In this document: in pieces, positions 29,925 through 32,184 of the stretch | How positions within the stretch are numbered: position 1 is the first letter of the stretch | How the letters are laid out: every line of letters starts with the position of its first letter | Source of the DNA: a virus | Lineage: Duplodnaviria; Heunggongvirae; Uroviricota; Caudoviricetes | Virus record (IMG/VR): IMGVR_UViG_2724679058_000003 | Length of the DNA: 64,000 bases | Direction: 5' to 3' (one strand) | Program-made: the position numbers and the translations under genes | The notes under the pieces: model-generated | Database searches by the model: none | Told to the model about the DNA's origin: nothing | Seen by the model: only the letters and a program-made list of their open reading frames with translations

Positions 29925-32184
29925 AAGAGCTGTGCTATGGATCTGTTTGCAGTGGAATTGAAGCCGCGAGTATTGCCTGGGAACCGTTGGGTATGCGTCC
30001 GGTGTGGTTTGCTGAAATCGAGTCTTTTCCATCTGCCGTTCTTGCGCACCGCTGGCCCCATGTCGCCAACCTTGGCGACATGACAAACTTGCCAAAAAAG
30101 TCCTGGCTGGGGAAATCGAATCCCCTGATGTGCTCGTCGGGGGTACGCCTTGTCAGGCATTCAGTATCGCGGGCTTACGTGGTGGGCTTGATGATGAACG
30201 CGGCGCGCTAACTTTGAAGTATGTGGAGCTTGCAAATGCAATTGACGACAAACGGTCTGAGTCCTTCCTCAAACCGACAGTTATCGTCTGGGAAAATGTC
30301 CCAGGAGTCCTGTCATCGGCAGATAACGCCTTCGGATGTTTCCTTGCCGGATTGGCTGGAGAAGATGCGCCATTTGAACCAGGTGATCGACCTGAATCAG
30401 GAAAAAGTAACGCGTTCTGGCGGTGGGATGGCAAAACCGGTTGCCATGCTCCAAAGTGGCCGCAGTGTGGTTGTATTTATGGACCGCAGCGAAAGGTGGC
30501 CTGGAGAATCCTTGATGCCCAATACTTCGGAGTGGCACAACGACGCCGACGCGTGTTTGTTGTCGCAAGTGCTCGAACAGACCTCGATCCCGCAACGGTA
30601 CTTTTTGAGTTCAAAGGCGTGCGCCGGAATATTGCGCCGAGCCGAAAAAAGAAGGAAATCGCTTCCGCCATTATTGCAAATGGCGCTGCAATCAGTGGCG
30701 AAAGCCTAAATCCATGCCTACACGCTGACATGCCACCCGGTATGAAATCGACGAAAGCCGTAAACGCTTTCAGGATGGCAGCATTTGGGGAATATATTGA
30801 CGATGAAACCGCATCGACAGTAAAGGCAAGAGATTTTAAAGATGCCACTGACCTTGCCGTTTTTAGCAGCACAGGAGCAGGTTTTTGGTCAGAAGGGCAT
30901 GGTACATTGCGGGCACGTGAGCAAGAAAGCCATGAGCATCTTGTTACATTGGCTTTTCCTGAGCGTATGAGCGGTACACAACATGCTGCAACTAAGAATA
31001 CTTCACCATCTCTAATGGCTAAAAATCCAACAGCTGTTTGCTATGAAGTAAGAAACGCAGAAGTAGCTGTCCGCCGTCTTACCCCTGTCGAATGTGAAAG
31101 GCTGCAAGGTTTTCCTGATGGGCATACGTTGATCCCGACGGAAAAGCGTAAAAAAGTTAATTCAGATGAACTGGCATATCTTCGCAATCACTATCCAGAT
31201 TTAAGCGAAGAAGAGGCCGCGATGCTTGCAGCTGACGGACCGCGTTACAAAGCGATCGGCAATAGTATGGCAATACCAGTAATGCGCTGGATTGGCGATC
31301 GGATTACTAAGTCCGTATGTCGGCAGAAAGAAGGAAGTGAAACAAAAGAGCGAAAAGTTAAACCAGCGGCAGAATTCGAACGGTCCATATTCAAATGGGC
31401 TGGTGGAAAATTTGGTGTTCTGGAACAAATCTTTCGCTATTTGCCAGAAGGGAAGCGCCTGATTGAACCTTTCGTTGGTGGCGGAGCTGTCTTCATGAAT
31501 GCCGGATACCAGGAAAATCTGCTAAATGATGTGAATGCTGACCTGATTAACTTTTACAAGACTCTGCAACGCGAGGCGCATTCACTTATCACTCTGGCAC
31601 ATCGTTTCTTCCAGGACTACAACACACAGGAAGGATACCTGGCAGTACGGAATGCGTTTAACAAACAAGTCTATGATGATTTACATCGCGCAGCGGCGTT
31701 TTTGTTCCTGAACCGACATTGTTTTAACGGATTGACGCGTTACAACCAGGCCGGTGAGTTCAATGTCGGTTATGGGAAGTATAAAACTCCGTATTTCCCA
31801 TTACAGGAGATGGAAGCCTTCCTCGGTGCGGAAGGGCGGTCTGAGTTTGTATGCGGTGATTTTGCAGCGGTGATTGAAGCTGCCGGAGAAGGAGATGTCA
31901 TCTTTTGCGATCCGCCGTATGAACCGCTTCCAAATACAGAGGGATTCACGAACTATTCCGGTCATGACTTTAAGTTTGAAGAGCAAAAACGCCTGGTGTC
32001 TCTGTTGACGGATGCTCATCGTCGAGGTGCAAAGGTTCTCATTACTAACAGTGGCGCGCCAAACATCAGAGAGCTTTATCATGACAGTGGCTTCAGAGTG
32101 GAACCTCTTTTTGCCAGACGTTCTGTGTCTTGTAAGGGGGACACTCGAGGTGTAGCTCATGACGTTTTGGGTATATTGCTCTAA
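29921..32184 (+). CDS. dmt: Dcm-Dam fusion DNA methyltransferase Dmt, interrupted by a -1 frameshift at 30094..30100
   Basis: C5-MTase motif I ([10 protein letters not shown]) at 29921..30100 in frame 2; motif IV ([12 protein letters not shown]) onward in frame 1; C-terminal Dam-like domain ([12 protein letters not shown]). The two frames join to 754 aa. Confidence 0.85.
30094..30100 (+). other. A_AAA_AAG heptamer at the dmt frame junction
   Basis: CCA AAA AAG in the upstream frame; a -1 slip continues with GTC CTG GCT in the downstream frame. Confidence 0.6.

Follow-up and report, generated by a model that had tools for sequence, protein, structure and literature searches.

A dmt gene divided near a dnaX-type slippery heptamer in a P1-like plasmid prophage: a likely one-base assembly error in an upstream A-run

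Introduction

In the plasmid prophage studied here, the P1-type gene dmt, which encodes a bifunctional C5-cytosine/N6-adenine DNA methyltransferase, is recorded in two reading frames that meet at a perfect dnaX-type slippery heptamer, A_AAA_AAG. The locus thus raises the question of whether dmt is expressed by -1 ribosomal frameshifting, has been inactivated or made switchable by a change in a homopolymer, or is broken only in the record. The window, that is, the whole stretch of DNA that was analysed (64,000 nucleotides (nt); IMG/VR record IMGVR_UViG_2724679058_000003), corresponds to bases 1-64000 of the GenBank draft contig LNZU01000048.1 (92,842 bp; assembly GCA_001611725.1), and positions 3675-24175 of that record are 100% identical to the same positions of the window. 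Our comparisons make it likely that the split is a one-base indel error of this draft assembly. One A of an A4 run, now A3 at 30085-30087, would have been dropped in the assembly and not in the plasmid, and the dmt gene of the real plasmid would most likely be the ordinary continuous P1-type Dcm-Dam fusion of 754 amino acids (aa). The A_AAA_AAG register would then be an accidental consequence of the frame change, with recoding neither needed nor implied.

The window belongs to the P1-like (Punavirus) plasmid prophages and has a RepFIB-type repA. Its dmt shares 99.3-99.7% nucleotide identity with dmt of P1 and JL22, the value for P1 (Dmt, AAQ14041.1; AF234172 66412-68676) being 99.3%. The uhr-hrdC-dmt-tRNA neighbourhood, with tRNA(Asn, Thr), is common to the window, P1 and TUM1887, and the window is collinear with P1, JL22 and TUM1887 in placing dmt within the uhr-hrdC-dmt operon, ahead of the tRNA/ban region. 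A paper that offers no additional information lists LNZU00000000 as a Brazilian E. coli that carries blaKPC-2 (PMC8213540).

Location of the missing base

Two open reading frames (ORFs), 29921-30211 in frame 2 with the stretch GDMTNLPKK and 30130-32184 in frame 1, jointly span dmt. A first-pass annotation made from the letters of the window had described a gene in two frames with AAAAAAG at 30094-30100 in the A_AAA_AAG register. Both the ORFs and the codon reading bear this out, as the A6 run at 30094-30099 is followed by G at 30100 and the upstream frame reads CCA AAA AAG. The same annotation was correct in that a -1 slip yields a continuous 754-aa Dcm-Dam fusion, since joining 29921-30100 to 30100-32184 gives 60 + 694 = 754 codons. 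A single inserted A also restores a 754-aa ORF. The repaired Dmt carries both methyltransferase domains, PF00145 (best stretch 8-135) and PF02086 (493-725), and the recorded sequence interrupts the polypeptide after residue 55. For the 684-aa downstream product, precomputed domain assignments likewise give PF00145 and PF02086.

Alignment to P1 dmt upheld the split itself, but not its placement on the A6 run. P1 (AF234172), JL22 and 673R5 read GACATGACAAAACTTGCCAAAAAAGTCC, with A4 followed by A6G, where the window reads GACATGACAAACTTGCCAAAAAAGTCC, with A3 followed by A6G. The missing base thus changes ACAAAACTT into ACAAACTT in the A4 run, and the proposal that places the split of dmt on the A6 run itself fails, since the intact genes of P1, JL22 and 673R5 carry the same A6G. 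The A6 run, being the normal state, was ruled out as the lesion. Reads showing A7, which had been offered as the sign of a simple base-call error, would be a misleading test, since intact genes have A6. In these genes the codons are ACA AAA CTT GCC AAA AAA GTC (T55 K56 L57 A58 K59 K60 V61), and in the window three out-of-frame codons, AAC TTG CCA (N L P), follow the deletion and precede A6G. The joined peptide TNLPKKVLAG is consequently not the ancestral one. Because intact genes read (GCC) AAA AAA G(TC), the A_AAA_AAG register is owed to the one-nucleotide deletion 6 nt upstream. Of the explanations first put forward, a sequencing error has the best support as to kind, although its site would be the A4 run and not A6.

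Nor is the heptamer itself constant among relatives. The dmt gene of TUM1887 (NZ_CP128965.1; 28767-28853 of the aligned locus L005) has A4 and A7, with an A at the equivalent of 30100 that changes V61 to I, and it is intact and annotated as 754 aa, so the last base of the heptamer is not conserved. More distant Dmt homologues have KLAQKV, KLAKIV or KLAIKV at this site.

Rarity of the A3 allele

The A3 form was sought in several collections. A 46-mer centred on the deletion gave no match in megablast searches of 5,426 complete E. coli genomes or of the PLSDB plasmids, and exact DNA searches with an A3 37-mer gave none in IMG/VR, in the GTDB representative genomes or in the JGI metagenomes. The corresponding A4 47-mer occurs in 412 records from 411 complete E. 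coli genomes, of which the ten listed are annotated as one methyltransferase coding sequence, and the A4 38-mer occurs in 55 IMG/VR contigs. All 23 IMG/VR loci that span the whole of dmt hold an intact 754-codon ORF, and single-frame read-through at this point was seen in each of the six A4 records fetched (P1, JL22, TUM1887, L014, L022 and L054). The combination of A3 with A6G was found in the window and in one Logan contig only.

Parallel indels in the draft contig

In order to place the deletion among other differences, the window was compared with plasmid pMTY1887 (NZ_CP128965), P1 and JL22. Twelve single-base indels are private to the window at sites where all three references agree, and several more occur where fewer references cover the site. 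They are mostly deletions and mostly fall in short homopolymers (A4 to A3, T5 to T4, A5 to A4, A7 to A6, C5 to C4, A4 to A5). Besides the one in dmt there are about 16 further private indels, namely the eight that split genes (Table 1) and those at 7656, 12688, 16718, 19321, 21183, 37651, 43409 and 46076; two of the further indels lengthen the C-termini of pmgM and of a 233-aa gene. The single-base indels are thus isolated and scattered and hit essential genes indiscriminately, nine genes being broken in all. A plasmid prophage in which all nine were truly broken would be unable to produce phage and probably also to maintain itself by plasmid replication. It is because these similar one-base indels on the same contig break other, essential genes that the dmt deletion would be best read as an assembly artefact. 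That the indels are base-calling or assembly errors is what we infer from these sequence comparisons. In the submitter's annotation, sit and ant1 are without a call and repL appears as proteins of 166 and 89 aa.

The ratio of indels to substitutions was considered as a test for error and set aside as uninformative, the window being mosaic and about 1.3% divergent from the three references. It was therefore replaced by repair and exact lookup of the affected genes, together with a comparison with the nearest IMG/VR haplotypes.

Repaired genes and nearest haplotypes

One-nucleotide repair per gene brought every one of the nine back to exactly its reference length (Table 1). Eight of the repaired proteins (sit was left out) were searched for as exact matches in a set of about 15 billion public proteins, and every one of the eight is present exactly in public data, with no amino-acid substitution relative to circulating intact alleles. 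Frameshifts without substitutions are unlike genuine pseudogene decay or a mismatch-repair mutator lineage, either of which should add substitutions.

The same picture was obtained at the nucleotide level. In the IMG/VR contigs L014, L022 and L054, all 2264 dmt positions equal those of the window, the missing A excepted, and between 27517 and 32393 (4.9 kb) that base is the sole difference between L022 and the window. Removal of the indels thus returns common intact alleles, both for the eight proteins and for the 2264 of 2264 nt of dmt.

Table 1. Features of the dmt locus as recorded in the window, and the other genes split by single-base indels. The last two columns give the length of the product after one-nucleotide repair and the number of contigs on which the repaired protein was found exactly.
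Feature	Position	Strand	Description	Repaired length (aa)	Contigs with exact match
dmt	29921..32184	+	P1-type bifunctional C5-cytosine/N6-adenine DNA methyltransferase; interrupted by 1-nt deletion as recorded	754	877
dmt 5' fragment ORF, 96 codons	29921..30211	+	frame 2; native residues 1-55, then out of frame to TAA at 30209-30211		
dmt 3' part, 694 codons	30100..32184	+	frame 1; longest ORF from GTG at 30130, 684 aa; open from 30016		
A3 run (lesion)	30085..30087	+	A4 in every intact relative examined (ACA AAA CTT = T55 K56 L57)		
AAAAAAG heptamer	30094..30100	+	A_AAA_AAG register owed to the upstream deletion only		
Predicted RNA structure 3' of heptamer	30102..30157	+	weak; within conserved coding sequence around catalytic motif IV		
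gp16 split	2094	-	private 1-nt deletion, A4 to A3; 129 aa plus remainder	278	514
sit split	6283	-	private 1-nt deletion, T5 to T4; 444 + 680 aa	1130	
ant1 split	12124	+	1-nt deletion	345	257
repL split	14125	+	private 1-nt deletion, C5 to C4; 166 + 89 aa	281	6
repA frameshift	25561	-	RepFIB-type plasmid replication initiator; 1-nt deletion after codon 39	294	at least 1000
gp5 split	38168	-	baseplate; private 1-nt insertion, A4 to A5	210	at least 1000
gp24 split	40057	-	private 1-nt deletion, TT to T	261	at least 1000
gp25 split	41115	-	private 1-nt insertion	405	15

Alternative explanations

The reading that first suggests itself at this locus is that dmt is expressed by evolved, programmed dnaX-type -1 frameshifting. 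Like the -1 site of E. coli dnaX, which combines A_AAA_AAG with an upstream Shine-Dalgarno (SD) element and a downstream stem-loop, the window has the identical, perfect heptamer in the zero-frame register of ORF 29921-30211, the slip would give the 754-aa product, and the 70 nt 3' of the heptamer can be folded with a predicted minimum free energy of -27 kcal/mol. Other points speak against it. Direct reading of the 24 nt 5' of the heptamer (30070-30093, CCTTGGCGACATGACAAACTTGCC) revealed no SD-like stimulator of the GGAGG or AGGGAG kind, and the fold does not clearly surpass those of shuffled sequences (z = -1.9; 10 of 200 shuffles fold as well) and oddly spaced, its outer stem beginning 1 nt and its inner hairpin 21 nt past the heptamer, a non-canonical arrangement. 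The heptamer is also not enriched in the window, where AAAAAAG has 27 copies, three within dmt, and shuffled sequence would give 19.3 +/- 5.0. Neither the two-frame layout nor the heptamer is conserved among homologues: the 412 E. coli records and 55 IMG/VR contigs have the A4 form, the 23 full-length IMG/VR genes are single ORFs with A6G read in frame, the heptamer varies in TUM1887 and in the more distant proteins, and its register in the window was created by a private deletion. The comparative data appear effectively to refute programmed frameshifting, which we regard as scarcely credible here. A phase-variable (contingency) homopolymer switch that toggles dmt, also raised by the first-pass annotation, is extremely unlikely as well. 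The lesion is indeed a change in homopolymer length, and changes in nearby runs recur in public assemblies: A6 has become A5 in the truncated 96-aa N-terminal products P0001-P0004, P0009 and P0010 and also in phage vB_EcoM-813R1, and G5 has become G4 at VLVGG (window 30139-30143) in the truncated products P0005-P0007. Contingency tracts commonly reach at least 7 nt, however, and this one has only 4; it is found as A4 or A3 only, in 412 against 0 records of complete E. coli genomes, with a single Logan occurrence of A3. The recurrent variants would be equally expected from homopolymer sequencing errors, and similar changes affect many unrelated genes of the same contig. Transcriptional slippage was set aside on general grounds, as appreciable slippage of RNA polymerase takes runs of 8-9 or more and A6 is shorter.

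It is also conceivable, although unlikely, that A3 is a real and recent inactivating deletion, dmt being a pseudogene in this plasmid and, by descent or independently, in the plasmid of Logan data set ERR4605576. The C5-methyltransferase part would then be lost, with motif I on the 96-aa fragment and the rest out of frame, and full-length Dmt could arise only by adventitious -1 slippage at A_AAA_AAG, at a low level and with the changes K56N and A58P. Several observations point this way and weigh against an assembly error. The 684-aa downstream product was found once more, on Logan contig ERR4605576_5688 (L064), an independent assembly with the same A3 and A6, and, measured against the three references, this contig and the window have 33 derived substitutions in common, so that A3 could be a real allele in a sub-lineage. 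The gp5 insertion recurs in Logan SRR13670129 on a background 98.4% identical, and the gp24 deletion recurs in two short Logan contigs. Furthermore, the window has 486 private substitutions in 36.5 kb relative to the three references, a number against which its indels are not abnormally frequent by themselves. Truncated dmt alleles other than A3, as listed above, show that disruption of dmt is at least commonly recorded, the heptamer stands in the correct register, and loss of dmt would be tolerable in E. coli, as P1 depends on dmt in Dam-negative hosts only (PMC12707154).

Against a real deletion stand the eight other frameshifted genes of the contig, among them repA and five genes for the tail or baseplate; the identity of the eight repaired proteins to common intact alleles; and the absence of A3 among the 5,426 complete E. 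coli genomes. The match with L064, too, has the look of an error that recurred and not of an inherited allele. Within an interval in which the intact L022 equals the window, L064 departs from the window at about nine sites, and A3 therefore occurs on two haplotypes, with the window's own haplotype also existing intact, which is homoplasy and not simple descent. L064 moreover has its own T5 to T4 deletion (window 27195), which frameshifts ppfA into an aberrant 195-aa product and suggests an error-prone data set. Since the split product was sought among thousands of samples that carry the gene, one A3 Logan contig is not surprising. Three other Logan contigs have different one-nucleotide indels in gp24, at 39946, 40008 and 40081, and the gp5 and gp24 indels in short Logan contigs recur in the same scattered way as A3, which weakens the case for an inherited allele. 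Rescue by slippage would help little. In E. coli reporters, unstimulated heptamers reached only 2.1-10 times the background of about 0.055% (PMC4066793), and a real deletion would therefore probably be rescued at a rate far below 1%. A further variant of the same idea, very unlikely in our judgement, is that A3 is real on both dmt haplotypes (LNZU01 and ERR4605576), having arisen or recombined, with the heptamer as an accidental saviour through tRNA-Lys slippage. Three out-of-frame codons would then be followed by low-level full-length Dmt bearing K56N and A58P, and its Dam and C5 methylation could suffice for the plasmid to tolerate the mutation.

An error in the draft assembly thus accounts best for the locus. 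In the exact lookup, the window's N-terminal fragments of sit and dmt had no match. The Logan contig L067, with a 253-aa RepA call, was uninformative, as it has 95.5% identity and its alignment stops before the repA indel site. In L064, positions 1-112 (window 27129-27240) hold a cluster of mismatches near the contig end, beside the ppfA deletion.

Comparison with known systems

Seen beside P1 dmt, the window differs in that its ACAAAACTT run is one A short, and the ORF breaks after codon 55 as a result; once this A is restored, length and domain content are those of P1. The closest match in kind would be the homopolymer indel errors of draft assemblies, which the window resembles in its scattered, isolated one-nucleotide indels, mostly deletions in short homopolymers, that fall regardless of essentiality and each lie one base from a common intact allele. 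The independent Logan contig with the same deletion is where this likeness fails. How slippery sites close to an indel can by accident correct it during translation has been reviewed (PMC5009743), and the heptamer, 6 nt past the deletion, could restore the frame with two residue changes. Here, by contrast, the deletion is itself likely unreal, and the expected unstimulated efficiency is below 1% (PMC4066793).

The locus also carries a caution, as a perfect dnaX-type heptamer at an ORF junction mimics recoding, and relatives place the frame change in a different A-run. Should the deletion be real, it would provide a small natural case of a frameshift just 5' of a slippery site that could partly correct it. 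Recoding biology would gain modestly from such a case and P1 biology nothing, dmt being dispensable in Dam-positive hosts. The nine split genes of LNZU01000048.1 should not be taken as true pseudogenes unless reads support them.

Minor observations

Just 3' of dmt, by about 210 nt, three substitutions at 32394-32399 in a T-rich stretch are private to the contig, which reads T..T.G where L014, L022, L054, L064, TUM1887 and JL22 read A..G.T. In the records of vB_EcoM-673R5 (ON470615.2, L003) and vB_EcoM-813R1 (ON470617.2, L004), the annotation divides dmt into two or three pieces and gives rdgC/hrdC a late start ('RdgC1', 'RdgC2'), which suggests that these records also hold several indels. Some E. 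coli contigs encode 'Dam family' proteins of 1089-1095 aa (P0155, P0163, P0164 and P0166) that belong to the 90% cluster of Dmt and extend about 340 aa beyond the 754-aa P1 form.

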